Positions 13,696 to 35,821 of a stretch of DNA of 64,000 nt are shown one piece after another. Made by a program: the position numbers and the translations under genes. Under the pieces are notes generated by a model that worked only from the letters and a program-made list of their open reading frames with translations, was not told where the DNA came from and did not search any database. The stretch's first letter is position 1, and each line of letters begins with the position of its first letter. Source of the stretch: an uncultured Gammaproteobacteria bacterium (GTDB lineage Bacteria; Pseudomonadota; Gammaproteobacteria; UBA4575); assembly GCA_951812785.1 (NCBI GenBank), contig OX638335.1, forward strand, positions 135,630 through 199,629, written 5' to 3'.

Positions 13696-15447
13696 CTACA
13701 TTTTATCTGGTGCATTCACGCCCAGGATAGCTAAACCGTTTGCCAGAACGTGTTTTGTTGATGCAATTAATAGTAATCGCGCATTTCTTAATGGTTGTGA
13801 ATCAACTAAAAACTGTGTTTCATTGTAATAGCCATGGAATTTTTGTGCGAGTTCACGCAAGTAGTTGACTATTAAGTGAGGTGCATTTTTATCGCATGCG
13901 CTAACAATTAATTCAGGATAGTCGGCGAGCTTTTGCATCAGCGTATGTTCGCTATCTTCGCTGAATAGACCCTCTAACCTGTCTAGATTATTTGTATCTA
14001 GCGTATCTTCGGCTTGCCTTAATACGCTGCAAATTCTTGCGTGTGCATATTGCACATAATACATGGGATTTTCATTGCTGGTCGATTTGGCTAAGTCCAA
14101 ATCAAAATCTAAATGTTGTTCGCTTTTGCGCATCACATAAAAGAAGCGAGCGGCATCAGAACCAACTTCTTTGCGTAACTCACGTAGCGTGATAAATTCT
14201 CCGGAGCGAGTAGACATTTGCTGCTTAACATTGCCACAATATAGTTTGGCAAACTGTACTAACAAGATCTCAAGTTTAGATTCGTCTAGATTGAGTGCTG
14301 TTAAAGCAGCTCTTACTCTAGCGATATAGCCGTGATGGTCCGCGCCCCATATGTTTATTATTTTTGAATGCCCTTTGGAAAATTTGTCAGCATGATAGGC
14401 AATGTCTGATGCAAAATAAGTGGGTTGGCCATTGTCTCTTACAACTACACGATCTTTTTCATCACCAAGTTTAGATGACGCAAACCATAAAGCACCACTT
14501 TTCTCATAAATGTGATTGCTAGCCTTTAATTTTTCAATCACGTCATCAATCTTGTTATTACTGAATAGACTTCGTTCTGAGTACCATTGTTCATAATCAA
14601 CACCAAATAAATACAAATCATCTTTGATGTCTGTAAGTATAATATTGATCGCCAAGTCGAAGAAGATCGCATAGCCTTCGGGTTGTAATTTTTCTTTAGC
14701 AACGGAAATCAATGCATCAATATACTTTTCTTTGTCGCCACCCTCTGGTTCATCTTTAGGTAAGTCGCCACGGAATGAAGCAGGTTCTACCAAGTACTTG
14801 TTGCCATGTGTACGGTGTGCAGTCGCGGCAATATCCCAAATATAATCACCTTTATAGCCGTTGATTGGGAAGGTGAATTCTGTTCCACACAGTTCAAGGT
14901 AACGTAGCCATACGGATGTTGCCAAGATATCCATTTGGCGACCCGCATCATTCACGTAATATTCGCGATGAACCTGGTAACCATTAGCAATGTATAAGTT
15001 GGCAAGTGTGGCGCCATAAGCGGCTCCTCGACCGTGACCAACGTGTAATGGGCCAGTGGGGTTAGCTGATACATATTCAAGGTAAATTGCTTGCTTGTTG
15101 CCATTCTGGTTGTTGCCGAAATTACTTTTCTCAGAAAGAATGCGACTAATTATTTGACTATGATTTTTTTGTGCAATAAAAAAATTAATGAAACCTGGAC
15201 CGGCAATTTCTATTTTTTCAAATAATGCGGATGAGCTTAGTTGATCGCTTAATAGTCCAGCTAACTGACGAGGCGCAAGGCCAAATATTTTTGCAGATAC
15301 CATGGCGATATTGCTTGCGTAGTCACCATGAGTGGGGTCTTTGCTGCGAGTGACTTGAGCTTCACCAGTAAATTCGCCGTGAATTTTATCTTCTGCTGAT
15401 AACTGCTGCATTGCTTCAGTAATTGCTTGAATGATTTGGTCTTTCAA
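13696..15447 (-). CDS. argS: Arginine--tRNA ligase
   Basis: 583 aa with HIGH motif 'PTGPLHVGHGRG' and a DALR anticodon-binding C-terminus. Confidence 0.95.
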   Translation of the reverse strand: MKDQIIQAITEAMQQLSAEDKIHGEFTGEAQVTRSKDPTHGDYASNIAMVSAKIFGLAPRQLAGLLSDQLSSSALFEKIEIAGPGFINFFIAQKNHSQIISRILSEKSNFGNNQNGNKQAIYLEYVSANPTGPLHVGHGRGAAYGATLANLYIANGYQVHREYYVNDAGRQMDILATSVWLRYLELCGTEFTFPINGYKGDYIWDIAATAHRTHGNKYLVEPASFRGDLPKDEPEGGDKEKYIDALISVAKEKLQPEGYAIFFDLAINIILTDIKDDLYLFGVDYEQWYSERSLFSNNKIDDVIEKLKASNHIYEKSGALWFASSKLGDEKDRVVVRDNGQPTYFASDIAYHADKFSKGHSKIINIWGADHHGYIARVRAALTALNLDESKLEILLVQFAKLYCGNVKQQMSTRSGEFITLRELRKEVGSDAARFFYVMRKSEQHLDFDLDLAKSTSNENPMYYVQYAHARICSVLRQAEDTLDTNNLDRLEGLFSEDSEHTLMQKLADYPELIVSACDKNAPHLIVNYLRELAQKFHGYYNETQFLVDSQPLRNARLLLIASTKHVLANGLAILGVNAPDKM

Positions 15448-15509
15448 CGCTAAGTCTCAAGTTAATATAAAGCGCAGCATTGTACCTGAATTTATCAGGA
15501 ATGAATTAG

Positions 15510-17714
15510 TCAGAAATTATCGATAGGGTCGACATCAATACTCCAGCGAACCTTGCGTGTTTCGGGAAGAATTTCAATGTGATTTAAACATGCATCTATA
15601 GATTGGCTGAATAATCCACGTTGATTTGCAACTAATAAAATAAAGGCTCGAAATTGGCCCGCTTTCTTTTCCATGGAAGGGACTATTGGCCCTTGAACAG
15701 ACACCTCAGCTGGGAGTAGTTGTCGTGCAATGTCAGCGACTCGCTCTAGAAACACAAACAAATCTGTGCTGTTTTGGCTGCGTGCACGGATGGCAATATG
15801 GTGTGAAAACGGTGGTAATTTCCAGTTTTCACGTGCTTGTAGTGCTTGAGTTGCGAAGGCGGGATAACCACTGTGTAGCAGTGTTTGCAACAAGGGGTGA
15901 TCAGGCGTGTGTGTTTGTACCAACACCTCGCCTTGAGTGCTGCGCCGACCTGAGCGGCCTGCTACCTGGATTAGTAATTGAGCGCAACGTTCCATGGCGC
16001 GAAAGTCACTGCTATGAATGCCATAGTCGATATCCAATACCCCCACTAATGAGACATCTGGAAAATCATGTCCTTTGGAGAGGATCTGGGTACCAATGAT
16101 AATTTTATGTTTTAGTTGATGAATTTCATCTAATATTTTTTCCAACGAACCTTTGCGGCGGGTTATATCTCGATCTAAACGGATAGTTGAATAATCTGGA
16201 AACTGTTGAGATAACACCTCTTCAATACGTTGGGTGCCATGCCCCACCATGATGAGATTGTTAGAAGCACATTTTGGGCACTGTTCGGGTTTGTACTTAC
16301 TGCTGTCACAATGATGGCAGATTAACTTATCTGTCTTGCTGTGATAGGTCATGTTGGCATCACAACGAACACACTTTGCTACCCAGCCACAATCGTGGCA
16401 AAGCAATGCGGGTGCGTAGCCGCGCCGATTCAGGAATAGAATGACTTGCTTGCCTGCTTCTAAATGAGTATGCATGGCTTTGCATAGTAGGCTGGATAAT
16501 ATAGACCCAGCATACTCAGTTCTCATGTCTGCAAATTGGATTTTTGGCAATAACTCCGAGTGCACACGCTTATTCAAGTGCAAGTGTTGAAACTTTTCTA
16601 ACTTAGCATTGTGGATTGACTCAAATGATGGTGTGGCACTGCCTAATACCACGGGAATCGATAGTTGCTTAGCTCGGTATATGGCAACATCTCTAGCATG
16701 ATAAACAAACCCTTCTTGCTGTTTTAGTGAGGTGTCATGTTCTTCGTCGACAACGATGAGTTTTAAATATGGGATCGGTGTGAATACGGCTAAGCGTGTG
16801 CCCAAGATGATGCGAATCTTACCTTTGCTAATATTCAGCCAGGTCTGTTTGCGTTGTTTCTCGGTGATGTTGGAATGAAGTAAGCCAATAGTCATGCCAA
16901 AATGGGCTTCTAAACGGCTGTATAATTGGGGTGTCAATCCTATTTCGGGAACTAGAATAAGTATTTGCGCTTTTGCGGATTTGAGAGCTTCAGTGATAAG
17001 GCTGAAATATACTTCAGTTTTGCCGCTGCCAGTGACGCCTTCCAATAAGTGAACTGCAAATGTATCTAATGTGGCAAGAATGCTATCACTGACACTGCTT
17101 TGGTCTTCGGTTAGTTGTAGAAAATTTTCTGCAAGCGTTTGTGGCTCATCAGGCGGTTGAATAATTTCAATTTGCTCAATCATCCCACGTTGCTCAAGCG
17201 CTTTGATCATGGTGCTACACCCTGGGAATTGATCCCTAAGTTGTTTCGGCGCTACGCCATGGGTGTGTTGTTGTAACCAAGCATAGATGATCGCCTGTTT
17301 AGGCGCCCGCGCTAGCGTCTTGTTTGGAGTATTAGTGGTGGCTTGCCATCTAAATTCAGTAGATGAGCTGTCTTCATCCTGCTTTGCTTTACGTAATGCG
17401 GGAGGCAATGCGCTAAATAAGGCTGATCCTAAGGGAAATTGGTAATAATGTGCTGCCCAGCGAATTAATGAGAATGATTCTGTATCAAAGATCGCGTAAT
17501 CATCTAGCGTTGCTTGAATGGTTTTTAGTCGGTTTGCATCAATACTAGGCGTGTCGATTAATTTAATGACAATGCCTACTAAAGTATGTTTACCGAAAGG
17601 AATGATTACGCGGCTTCCTGGCTGCAACTCAGTAATAGTGTCTGGAACACGATAATCAAACAATCTTCGTAACGGAGAATCAATTCCGACTTGGGCAAAC
17701 TTCTTTAATGTCAT
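15510..17714 (-). CDS. priA: Primosomal protein N' (replication restart helicase)
   Basis: 734 aa with Walker A 'GVTGSGKTEVY', DEEH box and Cys-rich zinc-binding insert 'CHDCGWVAKCVRCD...CHHCDS...CPKC'. Confidence 0.95.
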   Translation of the reverse strand: MTLKKFAQVGIDSPLRRLFDYRVPDTITELQPGSRVIIPFGKHTLVGIVIKLIDTPSIDANRLKTIQATLDDYAIFDTESFSLIRWAAHYYQFPLGSALFSALPPALRKAKQDEDSSSTEFRWQATTNTPNKTLARAPKQAIIYAWLQQHTHGVAPKQLRDQFPGCSTMIKALEQRGMIEQIEIIQPPDEPQTLAENFLQLTEDQSSVSDSILATLDTFAVHLLEGVTGSGKTEVYFSLITEALKSAKAQILILVPEIGLTPQLYSRLEAHFGMTIGLLHSNITEKQRKQTWLNISKGKIRIILGTRLAVFTPIPYLKLIVVDEEHDTSLKQQEGFVYHARDVAIYRAKQLSIPVVLGSATPSFESIHNAKLEKFQHLHLNKRVHSELLPKIQFADMRTEYAGSILSSLLCKAMHTHLEAGKQVILFLNRRGYAPALLCHDCGWVAKCVRCDANMTYHSKTDKLICHHCDSSKYKPEQCPKCASNNLIMVGHGTQRIEEVLSQQFPDYSTIRLDRDITRRKGSLEKILDEIHQLKHKIIIGTQILSKGHDFPDVSLVGVLDIDYGIHSSDFRAMERCAQLLIQVAGRSGRRSTQGEVLVQTHTPDHPLLQTLLHSGYPAFATQALQARENWKLPPFSHHIAIRARSQNSTDLFVFLERVADIARQLLPAEVSVQGPIVPSMEKKAGQFRAFILLVANQRGLFSQSIDACLNHIEILPETRKVRWSIDVDPIDNF

Positions 17715-17806: not shown

Positions 17807-18069
17807 AAAAGTGCCGTAATAAAGCTCAAAAAATGCTGTTGTTTGCTACCTGTTTTTAGATTGCACAAATTACACTCAATTATTAGCGCATAAAAATTAT
17901 ACACTTATGGTAATTTATGCGCAATTAATGACCTCCTATCAAAATTCATATAACTTTAACACCACTTGTGAATAAAATTCTTTAAGAGATGCTCGTATAC
18001 TTGTAGTGAGTGCTCTTCGTCAACCAACCCAAGTTAACGTTCGTTATTAGGGATAAGCCGATCTATTAT

Positions 18070-18661
18070 ATGAGTAAAACACTTATGTGTTTAGAACAAT
18101 GTAATGAGGAAATCGTACTGAAGGTTACACAAGATCAGCATCAGGAACTAGCCGATTGCTACCGCGGCGTAGAGCAGCGGGCATTTCGCATGGTGATGAT
18201 AGAAACACGCCAATTGAGTGATGCGTTGGATATAGTCCAAGATGCAATGGAATCGCTGATGAAAAGCTATATTAATAAGCCTAGTGAAGAATGGCGGCCA
18301 CTGTTTTACCGGATATTGCAAAATAAGATTAAGGATTGGCATCGCTGGGGAGCTGTCAGAGCAAAATTACACTTTTCTAAGTCTGAAAAGGAGAGCGGTG
18401 AGGATTGGTTGGAGTCTCAAGTGGAAAGCCCTCAGCCATCACCTGAGAAAAGCCTTCAAGCTGATATTAAGTATGGATGATCTACAGAAAGCATTGAGTC
18501 AATTATCTCGGCGCCAAAGGCAAACATTTTTATTGCGCGTGTGGGAAGGCTTTAGCGTGAATGAAACTGCGGATATTATGAAGTGCTCAAGCGGAAGTGT
18601 TAAAACGCATTTATCACGTGCGCTAAAATCGCTGCAAAATTTATTAGAAGACATAACTTGA
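18070..18661 (+). pseudogene. ECF-type RNA polymerase sigma factor, interrupted by +1 frameshift near 18470
   Basis: Region 2 lies in ORF 18010-18480. Region 4 ('RQRQTFLLRVWEGFSVNETADIMKCSSGSVKTHLSRALKSL') lies in a different frame (18284-18661). Confidence 0.7.
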
Positions 18662-27324: not shown

Positions 27325-28192
27325 ATGCTTAAAAGCATGACCGCGTTTGCGCGTGTCGATGAGAACCATCCAAAGGGTAATTTTGTATGGGAAGTGCGTT
27401 CGATTAATCACCGTTATCTAGAGGTTGGCTTTCGCTTGCCGGAAGAATTGAGGTCATCTGAATTTGACTTGCGCAAGCAAGTACAGAATTTATTGAGCCG
27501 AGGAAAAGTGGATTGCACATTCCGTTTGAAAGCGACTGCAAATTCTGATGTTAACTTAAGCATTAATGAAAAATTGCTCGACAGTTTATTGGAACAAACA
27601 CAAATTTTACGCAAGAAATCACCAGACATCGCTGCGCCTAATCCAGTGGAGTTGCTTAATTGGCCCGGTGTAACAGAACAAGCACAAATTGACCAATCAG
27701 AATTGACTAAAACAGCTAAACAATTATTTGATCGAGCAATTAAGTCGTTAATCAAAAATCGAAAGATGGAAGGTGATCGAATGCGTGAACTGATTGCGCA
27801 ACGTGGTAGTCAATTATAAAGTATTGGTCGCGACTGTTCGGGAATGTCGCCCTGAAGTGTTGTCTGCAATAAGAGCTAAGCTAACGACACGTATAGAAGA
27901 GATGAAGGTAGATATAGACTCCAATCGTTTCGAGCAAGAGTTGGTTATGATTGCGCAGAAGTTGGATGTTGATGAAGAGTTAGATCGTTTGGATAGTCAC
28001 TTAACTGAATTAGAAGATGTATTAGCTAGTAACAAACCGGTAGGACGACGTTTAGATTTTCTTATGCAGGAATTAAACAGGGAAGCGAACACATTGAGTT
28101 CAAAATCGGCTGACATTGTGACAACACAAGCTGCTGTTGATATGAAAGTGAATATTGAGCAGATGCGCGAACAGGTGCAGAATATTGAATGA
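27325..28192 (+). CDS. yicC: YicC-family protein, apparently split by a single-base frameshift near 27800-27830
   Basis: The N-terminal 164 aa (27325-27819) and C-terminal 132 aa (27794-28192) align collinearly to E. coli YicC (ending '...IEQMREQVQNIE'). Confidence 0.8.
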
Positions 28193-28377
28193 TTTTTCTG
28201 ATTGTTTCTAAGTCTTTCATTCCACACTTAAGTCCCATAAATAGGGGCTTTTTTATTTCGCCCTGTTTATAAGTGTCACTCTATGTTTCAAAATAGTGGT
28301 GACATAAAAACGTGCCACCACTGAAAATCAGCTAATTATGGCTTTCTGTCACCACTCATTAGTAAAGAGGGGGCAGC

Positions 28378-29657
28378 ATGGCCGCAAAACTAAACGACAA
28401 ACAAGTTAAATCGCTTCTACGCAAAGGAGAGCCGGGACGTTTCGCCGCTGGTAGCGGGCTTTATTTCCGTGTCAGCAATGAAGGCTCCGGCTTTTAGGTG
28501 GTTCGCTACACTGCCAAAGGTAAGCGCCGCGAGATTACCCTAGAGAAATACCCTAGAGAAATACCCAGAGCTATCGCTGGCGAACGCCGCAGCAGAGACC
28601 GCAAGGTTAAAAGCCGATGTTAAGCAGGGCATTGACCCGCTAGCAGAAAAGAAGCGCCCGGACGGGGTAAAGATTCAAACCGTTAACGACCTGCCCACTG
28701 ATTGGCTCAAGAACGACATAGAGAAACGGCTAAAGCACCCCCGGATTCCCCGCCGAGTTTATGAGAACGACCTGGCCCCCCGCTTCGGTGAGTTATCCCT
28801 AAACCGTGTAAGCCCCCTTGATATACGCCACGCTATTGAGGCCATAGCCGCCGACGGGCGGCCTACCGTTGCCAATGACGCGCTAGGCTACTGTAAGCAA
28901 CTTTTCCGCCACGGCATCCGCTTAGACTTGATTAAATCCAATCCGGCGGACGCTTTCACAGTTCACCATGCGGGCGGAGTCGAACAGAGCCGGAGCCGAG
29001 CGCTATCTATCGACGAGCTAAAAACGGTATTCCAGATATTCCGAGATAACTCCGACCAGTTCACCCGAGAGAACTACCTGGCCGCTGCATTGCTGTTAGT
29101 CCTGGGCGTTTGTAAAGGCGAGCTAATCGCGGCTAAATGGAATGAGTTTAGCGACGACGGCAAGCTGTGGAATATTCCCGAGGAACGTAGCAAAACGGGC
29201 GTAGCTATCACTATCCCGCTTCCTTCCGTTGCTACCGACTGGCTCCAAGAATTGCATATGAGGGCATGTGGTTCGGAGTACGTATTCCCCGCTCGTCGTG
29301 CAAGTAAGCGCCGGGGCTATATCAGTGACGATACGTTAAACCATGTACTGGCTAAGCTCTTTGGTTTAAAGGTGCGCCCTGGGGAGCCACCCGCTAACAA
29401 GCTAAGTGAGGCGGGCATGGAGCACCTTGACTATTCACGACTTACGCCGAACGTGTCGAAGTTTATTAGCGGGTGCGGGTGTTGCCGGTCACGTTGCCGA
29501 GCGCTGCCTTAACCACAAGCTAAAAGGCGTTGAAGGTATTTACGACCGCTACGACTACCTCGACGAACGCCGCGAAGCATTACAAAAAATAGCCGACCAA
29601 CTCGCGCCAGCTATCAACCCTAGATCGAACGTAACTAGCTTTAGAAAGGGGGCTTAA
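28378..29657 (+). pseudogene. int: P4-type tyrosine integrase with three or more lesions
   Basis: N-terminal DUF4102-like 'LYFRVSNEGSGF' is followed by an in-frame TAG at 28495. A 13-bp tandem duplication 'ctagagaaatacc' x2 at 28541-28566 shifts the frame. A further shift near 29400 puts the catalytic C-terminus 'HDLRRT...GVEGIYDRYDY' in a separate frame. Confidence 0.85.
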
Positions 29658-29661
29658 GATC

Positions 29662-30246
29662 ATGGCTATGGATAACGAAACAGGCCGATTATATGAGCCA
29701 TTGTTACACCGTGGCGGAAAGATCATAGAGCGTAAAAATGTTTCTCTAAGCGATTCGGGCCGCTATATGCGCTGGATTGCCGAAACGCTGGCAGATTCAT
29801 TTGACCGCAAGCGCCGCCCTCCGTACCAGCTTCTAATGGAGCTAATCCCTGTGTTAATGGAAGCAGCCGAAAAAGCGGAACTTGCGGACGAATTGCACAG
29901 GCTTAGAGAGAATAACGTAGACTCTACGCGAGCCTTTGAAAAGGCAAAGGACGAAGCGCTTAACTCGTTGCTTTCTGGCTTCGGCTTGATAACACAAAAA
30001 GGTGGCGCAACAGGGAGCGCGGAAAAACAAGAGCGGCAGAGGTCGCCGGCTAGCTGCTTCTTTCTGGGAAGTCATAAAGTTTATGGACGAACTCAAGAAC
30101 GGCAGCGAATCCGGGCTTTCTACTCGGGGAGCAGCAAAGCAAGCCGCCGAAGCCTTCGGGATTGGCGAATCGACGGCCCGCCGCTACTGGACTCAATACG
30201 AAGAACTTCTTTTGCAAAACGAAGAGTAAGAACCACGCTCCTATAA
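29662..30246 (+). CDS. Hypothetical island protein; C-terminal HTH-like segment is in the overlapping +1 frame (30002-30229)
   Basis: ORF track only: a 194-aa ORF and a 75-aa ORF overlap in different frames. They may be one frameshifted gene or two genes. Confidence 0.3.
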   Translation: MAMDNETGRLYEPLLHRGGKIIERKNVSLSDSGRYMRWIAETLADSFDRKRRPPYQLLMELIPVLMEAAEKAELADELHRLRENNVDSTRAFEKAKDEALNSLLSGFGLITQKGGATGSAEKQERQRSPASCFFLGSHKVYGRTQERQRIRAFYSGSSKASRRSLRDWRIDGPPLLDSIRRTSFAKRRVRTTLL

Positions 30247-30329
30247 CTGGCTCAAAAGGTCGTATTTTTTCGAGCCAGCCGCCCCCGCAACAATGAGCAC
30301 CATGTAAGAACAAACAGCATGGTGCAGAA

Positions 30330-30527
30330 ATGAATACACAACAGCAAACCAACCCCGACCGCATTATCGCGCGCGCCCAATTCCGCGAGCTTACTGGTGT
30401 AAGTCGTACTACAGAATATTGCTTAAACCAGGAAGGAAAGCTCCCCGCCCTCGTTGAAGTTAACGGGCGCGTCCTGGGCTACCTAGAATCCGCTTATAAC
30501 GCTTGGCTTAAGCAATATTCAGCTTAA
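30330..30527 (+). CDS. alpA: AlpA-family phage regulatory protein (excisionase-like HTH)
   Basis: 65 aa '..FRELTGVSRTTEYCLNQEGKLPALVEVNGRVLGYLESAYNAWL', the AlpA/Xis HTH pattern. Confidence 0.7.
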   Translation: MNTQQQTNPDRIIARAQFRELTGVSRTTEYCLNQEGKLPALVEVNGRVLGYLESAYNAWLKQYSA

Positions 30528-30576
30528 GGGACGTTGAGCGATTAGCCAAGCTCCGTAACGCCGGGAGAGCGTTCTA

Positions 30577-32157
30577 ATGCAGCAGCTCCCCGAGGCACTA
30601 CAACCACTAGCCGTTTATCCTCAGTTCATACTGTGGAAGTTGGCAGAAAGAAACGGTAAGCGCGTAAAGCTACCCATTGATTATAGAACCGCAGCCGTTG
30701 GCGATGCGCCCGTGTTTACAGCGGCCATAGACAGCCACTTGAGCAGGTGCGACGAGAACCAATAACAAGCGTTACTTATCGCACTGGCCACCAGCTACTA
30801 GCTCCCACTCAGCAGGCCGAACACTTCGCGGGGTGCGTGTATATGCGTGATCGCCACCGGGTATTTACTCCCGACGGTGATCAACTCAACCCTGAACGAT
30901 TTAACGCCACCTATGGCGGCTATAGCTTCATTGTGAGCGAAGACAGCAAGACGACGCGTAAAGCTTGGGAAGCCTTTACCGAGTCACAAACCGTTAGCTA
31001 CCCGTGGGCGCATGGTCCCTGCTTCCGTCCGGAAACGCCAACGGGGGAGATAATCACCGAGGGCGGGCGGCTTGTGAATATCTACGTGCCTGCTCAAGGC
31101 GAGAAAATAGCCGGTGACGTTACGCCGTTCCTAGACCACGTAAAACGAATGCTACCGCAAGAAAGCGACCAAGAAATATTCCTTTCATATTTGGCCGCTT
31201 GCATACAGAAACCCGGCGTTAAATTTCAATGGTGCATTGTAATGCAAGGCGCGGAAGGTAACGGGAAAACCGTTTTTTACCATGTGTTGGCCTATGCCCT
31301 GGGCGAGCGTTACGCACACCTACCGAATGCGGCGGAGATAACCAACCCTTTCAATAGCTGGCTAGAACAAAAGCTAATTATCGGTATTGAGGAGCTACAC
31401 ACGGCGGGCCGCCAAGAAGTGGTCGACACACTTAAGCCAATGATCACCAATAAGCGGATAGAAATACACGGTAAAGGCCAGGACCAGAGAACCGGAGACA
31501 GCCGCGCTAACTTCATTATATTTTCAAACCATTAAGGACGCGGTACTTAAAAGCGAAAACGACCGCCGCTATTGCGTGTTCTATACGGCACAGCAGGAAC
31601 CGGGCGACCTCGAACTTAACGGAATGAACGGCGACTACTTCGCCAGCTTGTACGAGTGGTTAGCGTGTGGCGGCTTCGCCCACGTTGCCCACTACCTAGC
31701 TAGCCGCACCGTAACCGTGGACGTAATGGCCCGCGCTCCTGTTACCAGTAGTACCGCCGAGGCCGTCCGTTCTAGCTTAGGTGTAGCCGAGCAGATTACC
31801 CAAGAAGCTATAGACCTTGAGGAATGGGGATTCCGTGGCGGCCTAATCTGCACCAAAGCAGCCGGGGAGCTACTGAAAGCCAACGGCAAGAAACTAAGCC
31901 CCCAGAAAGTGGCGGGCGTACTGGTAAACCTTGGCTACATCAAACACCCAGCACTGGTGAGCAGTGACGGAAAGGTAAGTATTGACGGAGTTAAGCGCCC
32001 TTTATACGTAAAGCGCGGAAACCTAGCCGCCGGACTGTCTTCCCCTACAGCCGTGGCTGCTACTTGGAAGCGGGCACAGGAGGAAGGGCGCGCGGTTCCA
32101 ACTAGCGGAGCGTTCCGAGCTAGTTCCATCTTCTCGGAACCCCCGAAAGCCCCGTAA
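30577..32157 (+). pseudogene. Prim-Pol/D5-like primase-helicase (P4 alpha-like) split across three frames
   Basis: N-terminal Prim-Pol 'YPQFILWKLAERNGKRVKLPIDYRTAA' (30577-30765). Central helicase Walker A 'QGAEGNGKTVFY' (30747-31535). C-terminal part 31576-32157. Frameshifts lie at ~30750 and ~31535. Confidence 0.7.
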
Positions 32158-32568
32158 TTACTAGCTTTAACTCTCTTTAGTTCCAAGGTTCCAAGTAATT
32201 AATAAATAAGAGAGAGAAGTATAGAGAGAGGGCGTAGCGGCTACCCCTTTGGCGGCTACGGGAAGAACTGGCGGATAAGTGGAACCACTCGGAACCGCAG
32301 TGCAAAAACGGCGGAAGCCCAATAGTGACGGGGCTTGTAGCGGTTCCGTCCCGAGTTAATCAACTCGGAACTTTTAACAAAATATTTAACCCGGCCCAGT
32401 TAGCGGCCAACTAATAAACCGGAGCGGTAAAAAATGACCCCGAAAGAGCAACAAGCATTTTTGAAGATGATTTAAAGACATTGAAGCGATGCGGGCCGAC
32501 GTAGCAGAAATGCAAGTCACCATTAACTCAATGATCGGAGCAAACGACAACAAAGGAGATACGGAATA

Positions 32569-33202
32569 ATGAACAACTTACAGAAGATTCAAAACTTAGC
32601 CGCTAGCGTCCGTGATAGCTTGGCAACCCTGAAACCCTCTAGCGGCCTTGATGACCTCGACGCTATCGCCAAGGAGCGCTCCTTTATTGCGCGAAAAGCT
32701 CGACCTGCTCACCGACGCAGAAAGTACAGAGCGTGAAAAACTCGAAGCAGAAGAGGCCGCCGCCAAAGCAAAACAGCGCCAGGCTCTACTCCTAGATATC
32801 GCGAAGCAAACCGAAGCGGCAGCGATCAACTACCAGGAGCTAACCGACCGCGCCACCTCGATGGTTAGGGAGCTGGTAGCGGTACTGGCTAAACGTGAGC
32901 AGGTATTCAGTCGTCAATCCGTTGGTCTGAATGCGCCGGAAATCCGCGAGCTTTTGAGCCAGGAAGAGCAGAGCGAATTATTGTCGAAGCTAGATAGCTC
33001 GACGGTTGGCGTTTACCCCGGCAATTTTGGTAATAACTGGCGCGAAGCGGTAGCCCTAACCTGTGCAGATAACGCAAACCTACGCCGCGACCTTTACGAG
33101 CTGGTAAAAACCCCCGCTCAATATCAAGACAACCCGCTAGCCGGTGGGCGTCCATTGCTGGCAGACACAGCCCGCAGCCTAGCCGCTAGCGAACCGGCAT
33201 AG
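32569..33202 (+). CDS. Hypothetical coiled-coil island protein; the N-terminal 26 aa are in a different frame from 32648-33202
   Basis: 'MNNLQKIQNLAASVRDSLATLKPSSGLDDLDAIAKER' (frame 1) continues plausibly into '..LLREKLDLLTDAESTEREKLEAEEAAAKAK' (frame 2). Confidence 0.3.
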
Positions 33203-33445
33203 CATACCAAGACCCCCACTATGGCAGCCACACCAGCTCATTCAAGGGGCGACCGCTATCAAGCAGACCTAAGCGCCCCCGGCAAAGTAATTGACCTAAA
33301 CGCCGAGTAACAACCCCGCCCGCTTCGGCGGGTATTAATGGAGACAAGACAATGACAGACCTTAAAGCCAGTAACCCCGCTCTTTACGAATTGGCCCGAC
33401 GCAACGGCGTGACAATGCCCACCAGCAGCACAATACCTGCCAACC

Positions 33446-33975
33446 GTGGAACCTATGACGTTAGACGAGCTTAAGCAGTCATACCCAGGCTTATACGTTG
33501 AATGTATTGCCCTCGGCGTCAATCGTGAAAGAGAGCGCATTCTGACTACGTTACCTGCAAGCGGTAACAGCGCCCGCGAACGCTTTGCCCTTGAGTGCGT
33601 CCGCGATGGTAGCGCCATGACAGAGACCGCAAAAGCTCGCTATCTCGTTATGACTATGGAAGCGGCCCGCAAAGATAACGCCAGCGCCTAGGTAGTAGCC
33701 GCTATCGAAAAGCGCCTGGGGGGTGAGTTATGAATCTTGAACAGCTACTACAAGAATCACCAGAGCTTTACGCGGCCATTGTTGAAGAGGGTATCCGGTT
33801 GGAGCGAGAGCGGGCACTCGCACACCTCGACACGGCTCGGTGGTACGACTCATTGCAGGAAGCAACCGAGGCAATACGGACAGGTGAACCCGCTGAATCA
33901 GACGAAGCGCTAAACCACCATTACGCAGCCGTTGAGGATGAACACGACAAGCTAGGGCGTTTGAGGGTGCGCTAG
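33446..33975 (+). CDS. Two tandem paralogous small ORFs (81 aa each; 33446-33691 and 33730-33975)
   Basis: 'LDELKQSYPGLYVECIALGVNRERERI' versus 'LEQLLQESPELYAAIVEEGIRLERERAL' — similar sequence and length, so a tandem duplication. Confidence 0.3.
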
Positions 33976-34235
33976 TGGACGATCTACAGCCAGACTGTAA
34001 CGAGTACAAAATGGCCTACCTAAGCCGCTTTATGAGTGACCGGGCTATGACAGCTAAAATCCCTGGAGACTTCCAGAGGCGGCAGGTAGCGGAACGGCTA
34101 TGGGGGCAGCGAGCTTGGGCGAAAGGTGCGGGGCGTTTTGTCTACGTGTGTATGCCCGGTACGGCACAGATCGCTAGCTTGAAGCGGCCAGAAATTTCAA
34201 CATCAATATACGGGGAGTTTGCACCGTGCACATAA
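33975..34235 (+). CDS. Hypothetical island protein (86 aa)
   Basis: ORF only. The codon bias fits the high-GC island. Confidence 0.25.
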   Translation: MDDLQPDCNEYKMAYLSRFMSDRAMTAKIPGDFQRRQVAERLWGQRAWAKGAGRFVYVCMPGTAQIASLKRPEISTSIYGEFAPCT

Positions 34236-34636
34236 TCAGCAAAGCCGAATTTGCGAGACAAGCGGGTGTTACGTCGTCGGCTATCTCTAAGGCATTAAAC
34301 ACCGCGCTAAAAGAAGCGCTTAGCGGAGACGGGATAGACGCCGACCACCCCGCCGCAATTCGATATTTATCCAGGTGTGGTCATGTAGGGCGGCCACATG
34401 GTGGCGGGAAATCAGACCTAGCGGCCTATGTGGTTTCCCGCTCGGACGAGCTACGAAAGCTAGAAAGAAACTTAACTAATGAAGCAGCCCCACTGGTTAA
34501 GAGTATTTCAGATAATCTTTTTCATTTAGGCTTTGAAGCGGACAGAATGAAAGCTGGAGACCGTAGCGAACGGATCGCATTCATTAAAAGGAATCTCGAC
34601 TACCTACAAAGCTTAGCGGGGGCGAGCCAATGCTAG
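34226..34636 (+). CDS. Hypothetical HTH-containing island protein (136 aa)
   Basis: N-terminal 'MHIISKAEFARQAGVTSSAISKAL' is HTH-like. Confidence 0.3.
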   Translation: MHIISKAEFARQAGVTSSAISKALNTALKEALSGDGIDADHPAAIRYLSRCGHVGRPHGGGKSDLAAYVVSRSDELRKLERNLTNEAAPLVKSISDNLFHLGFEADRMKAGDRSERIAFIKRNLDYLQSLAGASQC

Positions 34637-35030
34637 TAACCGCCACGCTAACGCTATTAGAGCTTTCGATACACTCCGCTTGCTATATGGCTCTAGGTCT
34701 CATGTTCGGCTACGTCTTAGGGGTGGCCGACACATGGAACCGATAACCCTAGAATTGCAGAGCACCACAAAAGAAAGCCCAGAGAGGTCGTTACTCGTAG
34801 AAGTATTACTCTTGGCGGTTGTTGATTCGCTAGACGGGGAGGTGCGTAAAGTAAACGACTACGACCAGGAGTTAGCCAGAGTATGGCTTGAGCGCTCCCC
34901 AGTGTGCCGGTACTACTGCATACTTGTCGATATAGATTATCAGGCCATGATTGACCGGCTAAATAAACACTGGCGACATTGCTAGCACCATAAGCTAAAA
35001 TTACCGCATTTTACTAAGGATAAACTGCTT

Positions 35031-35463
35031 ATGGCATTAACTTTTCACCCGAAGCCAGGGACGATTCTAATGTGTGATTTTAGAGCGGGGTTTAAAGCCC
35101 CGGAAATGGTGAAAGTTAGGCCTGTTGTTGTAGTTTCCCCAAAGAGAAAACATTGCTCCGGCTTATGTACTGTAGTCGCTATTAGCACAGTAACGCCCAC
35201 TACTATCGAAAATTGGCACTACCAGGTCCCTAAAAGCGAGTATGCCGCAAATCCAACGATTCCAAGCTAAGGACTCTTGGGTAAAAGATGATATGATTTA
35301 TCGTGTCGGTTTTGACCGTCTAAACCTGATTGAAATTGGCAAAGAGCCGGGAACGGGTAAGCGTCTGTACTTCAGGCAGGGCTTAGGTAGAGAGCAAATG
35401 AAGAGTATATATTCTTGCGTTCTTCACGCCTTGAACCTTGGGCATTTACCCCAACATTTGTAA
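35031..35463 (+). pseudogene. MazF/PemK-like toxin-fold protein split by frameshift at ~35245
   Basis: 'MALTFHPKPGTILMCDFRAGFKAPEMVKVRPVVVVSP...SGLCTVVAISTV' resembles the PemK/MazF N-terminal half. The C-terminal continuation is in the +1 frame (35242-35463). Confidence 0.45.
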
Positions 35464-35821
35464 CCAGTCGGAACTACGCTATAATTGACGTGAGCGCTCA
35501 CGGGTATATACTAAATAGTGTTCCTGCGCTGCTTCGGCATCAGGCTTTTAAGCCTACCAGAACACGGTAGCTAGCTACGGTAAAGGCGATAACAAGCTCA
35601 CTGTAGCTATGAATTTAGGCTCCGAAAGGGGCCTTTGTCATTTCTGGCGTATAGAAAAGTTATAAGCGGCGCACACTCCGAACAAAAGGTGACAGATTTG
35701 GAGACAGACACACAAAGCAGACCAAGCAAAAACCTCTACAAACCCCTTGAATACTTGCAATTACGCCGCACACACAACAAGCAGGTGCAAAACATAGAAT
35801 GATGATTTGGGGAAAATAACT

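Follow-up and report, generated by a model that had tools for sequence, protein, structure and literature searches.

Immediately downstream of the gene yicC, in a 64,000-nucleotide stretch of DNA from an uncultured gammaproteobacterium (the window, analysed at its full length), lies a block of about 7.6 kb (28172-35803) with a GC content of 0.52 in a host of 0.40. It holds the remains of 13 genes, opening with a P4-type integrase and closing with a PemK/MazF-fold gene (Table 1), and is very probably the decayed, no longer mobile form of a small site-specific integrative element, one of a family that inserts into the final yicC codons of marine gammaproteobacteria. Host 1-kb intervals have a mean GC of 0.402 (standard deviation 0.031, maximum 0.488), while those of the island have a mean of 0.522, with 89% lying above the host maximum. 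GC at third codon positions (GC3) ranges over 0.31-0.40 across ten host genes and over 0.43-0.68 across the island reading frames, and a window-wide scan found no comparable GC step elsewhere in the 64 kb. An earlier sequence-only reading had described a high-GC foreign block beside yicC, and the computed GC and GC3 shifts bear it out. In what follows, the relatives of the element are labelled L081, L083/L084, L088, L089/L090, L091-L093, L095 and L096, and L086 is an empty site.

Table 1. The island, its target gene and its attachment and arm sites, in window coordinates.
Feature	Position	Strand	State, lesions or evidence
Host yicC, integration target	27325-28192	+	Pfam YicC_N and YicC_C on two open reading frames
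attL core CAGGTGCAGAATATTGAATGAT	28172-28193	+	Direct repeat; comparison with L081, L083 and the empty site L086
Intrinsic terminator, hairpin and T-run, supplied by the element for yicC	28230-28260	+	Terminator scan; conserved in L081 and L083
P' arm repeats	28274-28353		GGTGACA 28298-28304 (+); TGTCACC 28347-28353 (GGTGACA on -); inverted repeat
Integrase (int) pseudogene, P4-type tyrosine recombinase	28378-29657	+	Amber codon 28495-28497 (TGG to TAG); 13-bp tandem duplication 28536-28561; +1 G at 29429
Gene contiguous with int (icg slot), L083 type	29662-30229	+	Frameshift near 30000
alpA, excisionase/regulator family, 65 aa	30330-30527	+	Intact; Pfam Phage_AlpA, 22 bits against a cutoff of 21
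orf58, remnant of a 58-aa gene	30529-30577	+	138-bp deletion took the start and most of the body
Primase-polymerase/helicase pseudogene	30577-32157	+	790-bp deletion at about 30704; 3-bp deletion; +1 T at 31532
orf44 remnant	32434-32569	+	+1 T at 32471
orf246 pseudogene, conserved coiled-coil core gene of the family	32569-33310	+	+1 T at 32683; CAG to TAG at 33200
orf128 pseudogene	33352-33740	+	+1 A at 33450; +1 G at 33718
orf86 homologue, 81 aa	33730-33975	+	Open; in-frame 15-bp deletion
orf76 homologue	33975-34235	+	3' end replaced through an 86-bp deletion at about 34188
orf136, helical, N-terminal helix-turn-helix-like segment	34226-34636	+	Intact
orf83	34734-34985	+	Intact
PemK/MazF-fold pseudogene	35031-35463	+	+1 A at 35232; Pfam PemK_toxin
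P-arm tandem sites	35688-35706	+	GGTGACA 35688-35694; mutated copy GGAGACA 35700-35706
attR core CAGGTGCAAAACATAGAATGAT	35782-35803	+	Displaced native yicC 3' end; matches CAAAACATAGAGTGA of the empty-site relative

With its lesions repaired, the open reading frame (ORF) from 28378 matches Arm-DNA-bind_3, Phage_int_M and Phage_integrase in Pfam. The gene in the neighbouring icg slot keeps its N-terminus in the 29662 frame and its C-terminal helix-turn-helix (HTH) part in the ORF 30002-30229; in tblastn, residues 82-130 of the L083 counterpart, orf148, map to 30044-30199 in a different frame. The alpA gene differs from that of L081 by 17 synonymous and 7 non-synonymous codon differences, with no indels. 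The primase-helicases of intact relatives are about 790 aa long and contain PF22763, DUF5906 and VapE. In the window copy 30747-31535 still matches DUF5906 and VapE, while the 790-bp deletion removes approximately residues 43-306, that is, the entire NrS-1-type primase-polymerase domain and the HBD. The repaired PemK-like protein matches PF02452 (E 3e-10, 40.6 bits against a cutoff of 23.1), and phrog_15698 matches the intact L081 version of the gene. Pfam matches after repair thus support the P4-type integrase, AlpA, primase-helicase and MazF/PemK-like content first read from the letters. The description of the small ORFs as phage-like has no PHROG family in its support, as no PHROGs, Pfam, NCBIfam or PADLOC match assigns a function to orf58, orf44, orf246, orf128, orf86, orf76, orf136 or orf83. 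Directly upstream of the PemK-fold gene there is no recognised antitoxin family, and orf83, which has no match in these four databases, may be the partner of the PemK-like protein.

A repeat search showed an imperfect direct repeat of 22 nt at the two ends of the block, identical at 19 of 22 positions and with a spacing of 7610 bp. Its left copy is made up of the final six yicC codons and the stop codon. The left part of attL is host sequence and its CAGAATATTGAATGA part is of the element type; the last five or so codons of yicC and its stop are now derived from the element. To judge from the aligned sequences, the crossover must fall within GCAnnTnCA, a block of 9 nt in which attL and attR of any one host agree fully. 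The sequence-only reading had reported neither a tRNA target nor clear att repeats. The first part holds, as the insertion is within the yicC 3' end itself, and the second is overturned by the repeat. A tRNA was considered as the target and rejected, the sole tRNA in the window being a tRNA-Phe 8 kb distant. The element does not begin at the integrase ATG at 28378, as had been supposed, but in the yicC stop region at 28172; the integrase ORF starts 185 nt from attL. The sequence between the yicC stop and int, terminator hairpin included, is conserved between elements of different hosts, which indicates that attP carries a replacement gene end together with a terminator.

The same site was found empty in a relative. 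Searching with a repaired YicC returned the window's own 164-aa fragment (100% identical, on a contig of 2,158,385 bp) and many intact 288-aa relatives at 86-91% identity. One of these genomes, GCA_033344735.1 (L086; a gammaproteobacterial metagenome-assembled genome with a 2.4-Mb contig of GC 0.40, YicC 88% identical), has the gene order of the window, hemW, rdgB, rph, yicC, asparaginase-like gene, hsp20, cbpA, degQ, thiS and moaC, with the asparaginase-like gene following yicC after 30 nt and no element between them. The comparison with a related genome that had been proposed as a check has therefore produced the empty yicC-downstream site. The yicC gene of L086 ends in ...CAAGTACAAAACATAGAGTGA, matching CAAAACATAGAATGA of the window's attR and not CAGAATATTGAATGA of its attL. 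This shows that attR is the displaced native end and that the end now on yicC arrived with the element. A search for relatives based on Rph gave no empty site, with identities of at most 71% among the matches listed. Looking up the exact protein sequences of Rph, DegQ and the N-terminal YicC fragment gave no match; in the case of Rph, the start codon assumed differs from that of the relative's gene.

The target gene is itself a pseudogene in the window. One inserted T at 27817 turns TTA-AAA into TTATAAA and so introduces a stop after codon 164; the tblastn match to the relative's YicC breaks at codon 164/165, and the alignment shows a single extra T. As the insertion is 375 nt upstream of the att core and element-bearing relatives have an intact yicC, this lesion is independent of integration.

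Searches with the repaired primase-helicase found proteins of about 790 aa with the NrS-1-polymerase HBD, DUF5906 and VapE, the best of them 96% identical, and led to eight independent intact relatives of about 8.4-9.7 kb (primase 58-96% identical) directly after yicC in other hosts. L081 is the closest (primase 96% identical, on an 8.7-kb contig), and L083/L084 has a primase 86% identical on a 60-kb contig. The primases of L091, L092, L093, L095 and L096, all on metagenome contigs, are 74-84% identical; those of L088 (GCA_942490945.1) and L089/L090 (GCA_942490785.1) are respectively 58% and 64% identical to that of L081, and both are 65% identical to the repaired window protein. All nine family members are integrated at yicC, and wherever a locus includes the left flank the YicC C-terminus lies about 200 nt upstream of int. 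A repeat of the host's own yicC end flanks the element in each of the four relatives in which both ends were found (L081, L083, L088 and L092); a search for attR in L089 found none within the locus. The downstream gene in L083, L088 and L092 is gmk rather than the asparaginase-like gene, which places these three elements in different hosts. Intact relatives are also represented by copies in Vibrio mediterranei and V. hannami (WP_239921218.1, WP_277825215.1).

All the relatives have full-length, single-frame genes. The intact set of 13 comprises int (421 aa), the contiguous or overlapping gene (148-184 aa), alpA (63-65 aa), orf58 and the primase-polymerase/helicase (790 aa), followed by orf44, orf246, orf128, orf86, orf76, orf136, orf83 and the PemK-fold gene (143 aa). 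The gene after int overlaps it by 4 nt in L089 and is separated from it by 1-4 nt elsewhere. In L088 the PemK-fold module of the right-hand slot is replaced by a gene for anti-phage defence, a dCTP-deaminase of 522 aa (15173-16741; PADLOC, E 2e-171), a cargo in keeping with the habits of satellites. Directly downstream of the element in L095, at 15629-17048, a second, divergent integrase (40% identity) and an AlpA-like gene lie on the opposite strand, which suggests two elements in tandem at the yicC site. The window copy is a mosaic. It is closest to L081 in int (90% at the nucleotide level) and from the primase through orf76 (92%), and its icg slot is of the L083 type. The right module (34182-35800) is as close to L081 as to L083 (92-93%), but in the middle the identity to L083 is only 76%. 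This pattern of similarity indicates that the family exchanges modules. Against phage and plasmid records, the island DNA had no matches beyond short and weak ones.

The heptamer GGTGACA had been put forward as a weak att candidate, and it proves to be a conserved feature of another kind. It is not enriched across the window (9 found, 4.8 expected), yet three of the nine copies are at the ends of the island. In all five elements compared, the sequence from the yicC stop to int contains a tandem GGTGACAGnnTnGGTGACA followed 35-50 nt further on by an inverted TGTCACC, and an intact P-arm pair, GGTGACAGATTTGGTGACA, is found about 90 nt left of the attR core in L081, L083, L088 and L092. In the window copy the second tandem copy of the P' arm has gone through a 12-bp deletion at about 28296, and one P copy now reads GGAGACA. 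As an att core the heptamer was rejected, because it lies 85-125 nt from the true cores, is arranged like arm sites and is not enriched. By analogy, these repeats are probably the arm-type sites that an integrase with an arm-binding domain would use. Such a layout of arm sites is established for lambda- and P4-type integrases.

The lesions of the window copy were catalogued from a global alignment with L081, its closest intact relative, and by tblastn with the L083 icg gene. About 15 disabling lesions fall in 8 to 9 of the 13 genes. Among them are eight +1 frameshifts, two nonsense codons, three deletions (790, 138 and 86 bp) and the 13-bp duplication. Only alpA, orf136 and orf83 are intact, with orf86 open despite its in-frame deletion. 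The amber codon, duplication and frameshift that the sequence-only reading saw in the integrase are all present against L081, and the toxin-fold gene is indeed split, by the extra A at 35232. The primase-helicase does lie in three frames as described, although the first change of frame is the 790-bp deletion and not a simple frameshift. That most genes are inactivated also holds, with the addition of broken genes that had not been listed: icg, orf58, orf44, orf246, orf128 and the 3' end of orf76.

The surroundings look very different. Of 13 flanking host genes (9.05 kb) compared with a relative, 12 run their full length in a single frame, and the exception is the split yicC. At the flanking-gene rate 0.84 lesions would be expected over 7.6 kb, against the 15 seen (P = 2.6e-14). 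Further away, an extracytoplasmic function (ECF) sigma-factor gene at 18010-18661 appears frameshifted, with a region-2-like part in the 18010-18480 frame and Sigma70_r4 in the 18284-18661 frame; together with yicC it would bring the host pseudogenes in the window to two.

Substitutions give a second view of the decay. With L083 as outgroup, changes on the window lineage number 56, 35 and 176 at codon positions 1, 2 and 3, with a GC>AT to AT>GC ratio of 225:115; the corresponding figures on the L081 lineage are 25, 13 and 121, and 151:121. Positions 1 and 2 thus account for 34% of changes in the window lineage and 24% in that of L081. A mixture estimate, taking the selected pattern from L081 and assuming a flat neutral pattern, assigns about 64 window-lineage substitutions, some 1% of 5.9 kb, to a neutral phase. 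Set against a divergence from L081 of 8-13%, this suggests that inactivation was relatively recent, though not brand new. About 1040 nt have been deleted and about 24 nt inserted, and a deletional bias is usual in bacterial pseudogenes. With three lesions in int, one arm site deleted and another mutated, the window copy is predicted to be unable to excise, and with its primase-polymerase domain deleted it should also be unable to replicate. It is drifting towards the composition of the host.

The empty site, the eight occupied relatives and the enrichment of lesions together uphold the earlier view of a satellite or integrative-element layout stuck beside yicC. An integrative element with an architecture like that of phage-inducible chromosomal islands (PICIs) and of the chromosomal minimalist islands, also phage-inducible, known as PICMIs is well supported. 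Scanned with Pfam, PHROGs and NCBIfam, none of the 13 genes of L081 fell in a family for capsid, tail, terminase, lysis, relaxase or mating-pair functions, and no such family appears among the precomputed Pfam hits of the other relatives' genes. The gene order (int, icg, alpA, small ORF, primase) and the lack of capsid, terminase, relaxase and transfer genes are those of PICI/PICMI satellites. This makes spread by a helper phage the most likely route, and the family is likely to depend on one.

Several points weigh against this picture of a decayed copy from a family of small, probably phage-borne elements. We found no helper phage, packaging signal or virion-derived copy; the sole IMG/VR match is a phage polymerase 41% identical. 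No family match pointed to a packaging or capsid-redirection function (terS, rpp, ppi or sid-like), and the conserved genes downstream of the primase are without recognisable function. Other elements at yicC, the mobilizable genomic islands (MGIs) and islands like Salmonella genomic island 1 (SGI1), move by conjugation, so insertion at this site is not in itself a sign of a satellite. Finally, in the well-aligned parts of 28193-35781 against L081, all 11 single-base indels are +1 insertions, ten of which lengthen an existing base or run, a spectrum that some sequencing chemistries give. There are no single-base deletions against L081 in these parts, and the larger indel events are all deletions apart from the 13-bp duplication. 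The one-sided single-base spectrum could reflect a mutational bias of the host or sequencing chemistry.

The movement of the other yicC islands by conjugation raises the possibility that the family is an integrative mobilizable element spreading by conjugation and not a phage satellite. The yicC 3' end is a documented target of Vibrio MGIs and SGI1-like islands (PMC5704250, PMC8409611), and the family has no recognised packaging gene. We nevertheless consider this unlikely. Pfam identified no relaxase, MobI, mating-pair or RdfM-like gene in any member, although no search was made for an oriT (origin of transfer) mimic; at 8-10 kb the elements are much smaller than the 18-37 kb of those islands; and the order int-icg-alpA-primase matches that of PICMIs and PICIs (PMC10803314) and of an E. 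coli island at yicC.

The survival of four to five small open genes amid heavy decay could instead mean that the remnant is partly domesticated, with alpA, orf86, orf136 and orf83 kept for the host, for example as an antitoxin or regulator, while the rest decays. The position of orf83 directly upstream of the broken PemK-fold gene, where an antitoxin usually lies, would suit this. However, the genes are short (65-136 aa), and with 15 lesions in 7.6 kb several would escape by chance. On the window lineage 6 of the 8 changes in orf136 are at codon positions 1 and 2, which is unlike purifying selection, and none of the four genes has an assigned function. Domestication therefore seems improbable.

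The insertion spectrum would also be explained if the lesions were assembly or sequencing artefacts and the element were intact in the living cell, and two host genes, yicC and the ECF sigma factor, are frameshifted too. Errors of this kind would need to be concentrated about 18-fold in the island, since 12 of the 13 genes compared in the host flanks are full length in a single frame. Homopolymer errors do not account for two nonsense substitutions, for a 13-bp duplication or for deletions of 790, 138, 86 and 12 bp. Neutral drift is also indicated, independently, by the relaxed codon-position pattern and the GC>AT bias. We regard artefact as very improbable. That the block is ancestral core DNA of odd composition has next to no probability, as nothing beyond its fixed position speaks for it and it is refuted by the empty site in the relative. 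The duplicated yicC end on either side, the presence of the same element in unrelated hosts, with gmk-rpoZ-spoT downstream there and asparaginase-hsp20 here, and GC and GC3 values far outside the host range also speak against it.

Returning to the site-specific integrative element, its working can be proposed as follows. A P4-type integrase with an N-terminal arm-binding domain would recombine attP with the 3' end of yicC, while the GGTGACA arm repeats on either side of the core would organise the recombination complex. As attP would mimic the last five or so codons and stop of yicC, followed by a terminator, yicC would stay whole after integration and its native end would be displaced to attR. 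AlpA, probably with the gene contiguous with int, would direct excision, and the NrS-1-type primase-polymerase fused to a DUF5906 helicase would replicate the excised circle. The right end would carry variable cargo, a PemK-fold protein here and the dCTP-deaminase defence gene in a relative.

Some of the conserved genes and sequences outside this core have features of their own. The orf246 family comprises 15 clusters, including members in Marinobacter halodurans and Vibrio hannami. Its structure model (predicted local distance difference test, pLDDT, 79.6) predicts a long coiled coil, with an 86-residue helix and a small helical domain, and has no neighbour in the PDB with E < 1; the single-sequence model of orf136 was too poor for use. 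The genes orf128 and orf86 are paralogous, orf86 being about 36% identical to the C-terminal part of the orf128-homologous ORF in L091-L093, and the tandem pair is conserved across the family (L091 6699-7338, L092 5506-6145, L093 6109-6751). Between the PemK-fold gene and the P-arm sites, on the + strand, lies a conserved non-coding sequence (35512-35648) that may specify a small structured RNA. Promoter-like hexamers are found upstream of it, a terminator hairpin is at 35617-35634, and the predicted fold is stable (z = -3.3). Counterparts are found at L081 8345-8480, L083 15920-16055 and L092 7476-7612, and in the four sequences 38 predicted pairs are never broken, two of them having compensatory changes. 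No part of the island matched Rfam, even at E = 1.

It is conceivable, and we suggest it tentatively as something short of an even chance, that the island is the fossil of an undescribed family of marine phage satellites with five defining features. These would be strict targeting of the last codons of yicC, with an attP restoring the end of the gene and providing a terminator; a primase-polymerase/helicase of the NrS-1 type; the coiled-coil orf246 with the paralogues orf128 and orf86, which might act on helper-phage assembly; the candidate conserved structured small RNA beside the P arm; and a swappable cargo slot for defence genes at the right end.

The remnant itself is ordinary, and it is the intact family, as a candidate marine satellite lineage, that is of some interest. 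For annotation, the roughly 7.6 kb that follow yicC are a dead mobile element whose ORF fragments (such as the 171-aa P0247) merit a pseudogene label. The family adds a marine, low-GC branch to the elements that use the yicC 3' end, and gives a clean example of an attP with a replacement gene end and terminator, so that the target gene survives integration. The intact relatives L081, L083, L088 and L091-L095 could be used to test helper-phage dependence. The decayed copy is a small natural record of neutral mutation, with its roughly 1% substitutions biased towards GC>AT, its single-base insertions and its large deletions.

That the 3' end of yicC is a hotspot for integration is documented (PMC5704250, PMC8409611, PMC8978831, bioRxiv 10.1101/2022.07.18.500453), and decayed islands and satellites are common, so that the sequence-only reading overstated its case in calling the island unusual. 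MGIVflInd1, MGIVchUSA1, MGIVmi1 and SGI1-like islands target this end (PMC5704250, PMC8409611). They share with the yicC family a tyrosine recombinase, site-specific insertion at the yicC 3' end and hosts in the Gammaproteobacteria, but they are 18-37 kb long and move by conjugation, with oriT mimics or mobilisation/mating-pair genes and RdfM-type excisionases. Integrative mobile elements encapsidated in virions (VEIMEs), which are defined by their recovery from seawater as concatemers from virus particles (PMC9618062), are likewise small marine integrative elements with an integrase, AlpA and primase/helicase, integrated in bacterioplankton genomes. They differ in being virion-derived; no virion-derived copy of our family was found in IMG/VR.

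The PICMIs of Vibrionaceae need int, alpA, the int-overlapping gene and prim for excision and replication; their model accepts either of two primase families, DUF5906 or DUF3987, and pseudogenes are reported to be frequent in them (PMC10803314). In common with the yicC family they have co-located int, alpA and DUF5906 primase genes, a small ORF between alpA and prim, a gene abutting or overlapping int (L089 has the typical PICMI 4-nt overlap), no capsid or terminase, and marine hosts. PICMIs, however, integrate downstream of fis and not at the yicC 3' end, and have about six genes in about 6 kb, against 13 genes in 8.4-9.7 kb in our intact relatives, whose extra conserved genes after the primase (orf246, orf128 and orf86) PICMIs lack.

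PICIs integrated in yicC are already in the literature (bioRxiv 10.1101/2022.07.18.500453). E. coli PD4 (L098, NZ_CP074007.1, 327161-333306) has a 6.5-kb island between yicC and dinD, flanked by the yicC-end repeat CAGATTCAGAACAT(T/C)GA(G/A)TA. It has a zinc-binding primase-helicase and a DNA primase family protein in place of the NrS-1-type primase-polymerase/DUF5906 protein, no GGTGACA arm repeats and unrelated downstream genes, and its hosts are enterics, whereas those of our family are marine low-GC gammaproteobacteria. Yet it uses the same yicC codons as the family, its integrase is 43% identical over the full length (E 6e-96), and in about 6.5 kb, compared with about 8.4 kb, it keeps the same order of int, a hypothetical gene, a small HTH/AlpA gene, primase and small ORFs.

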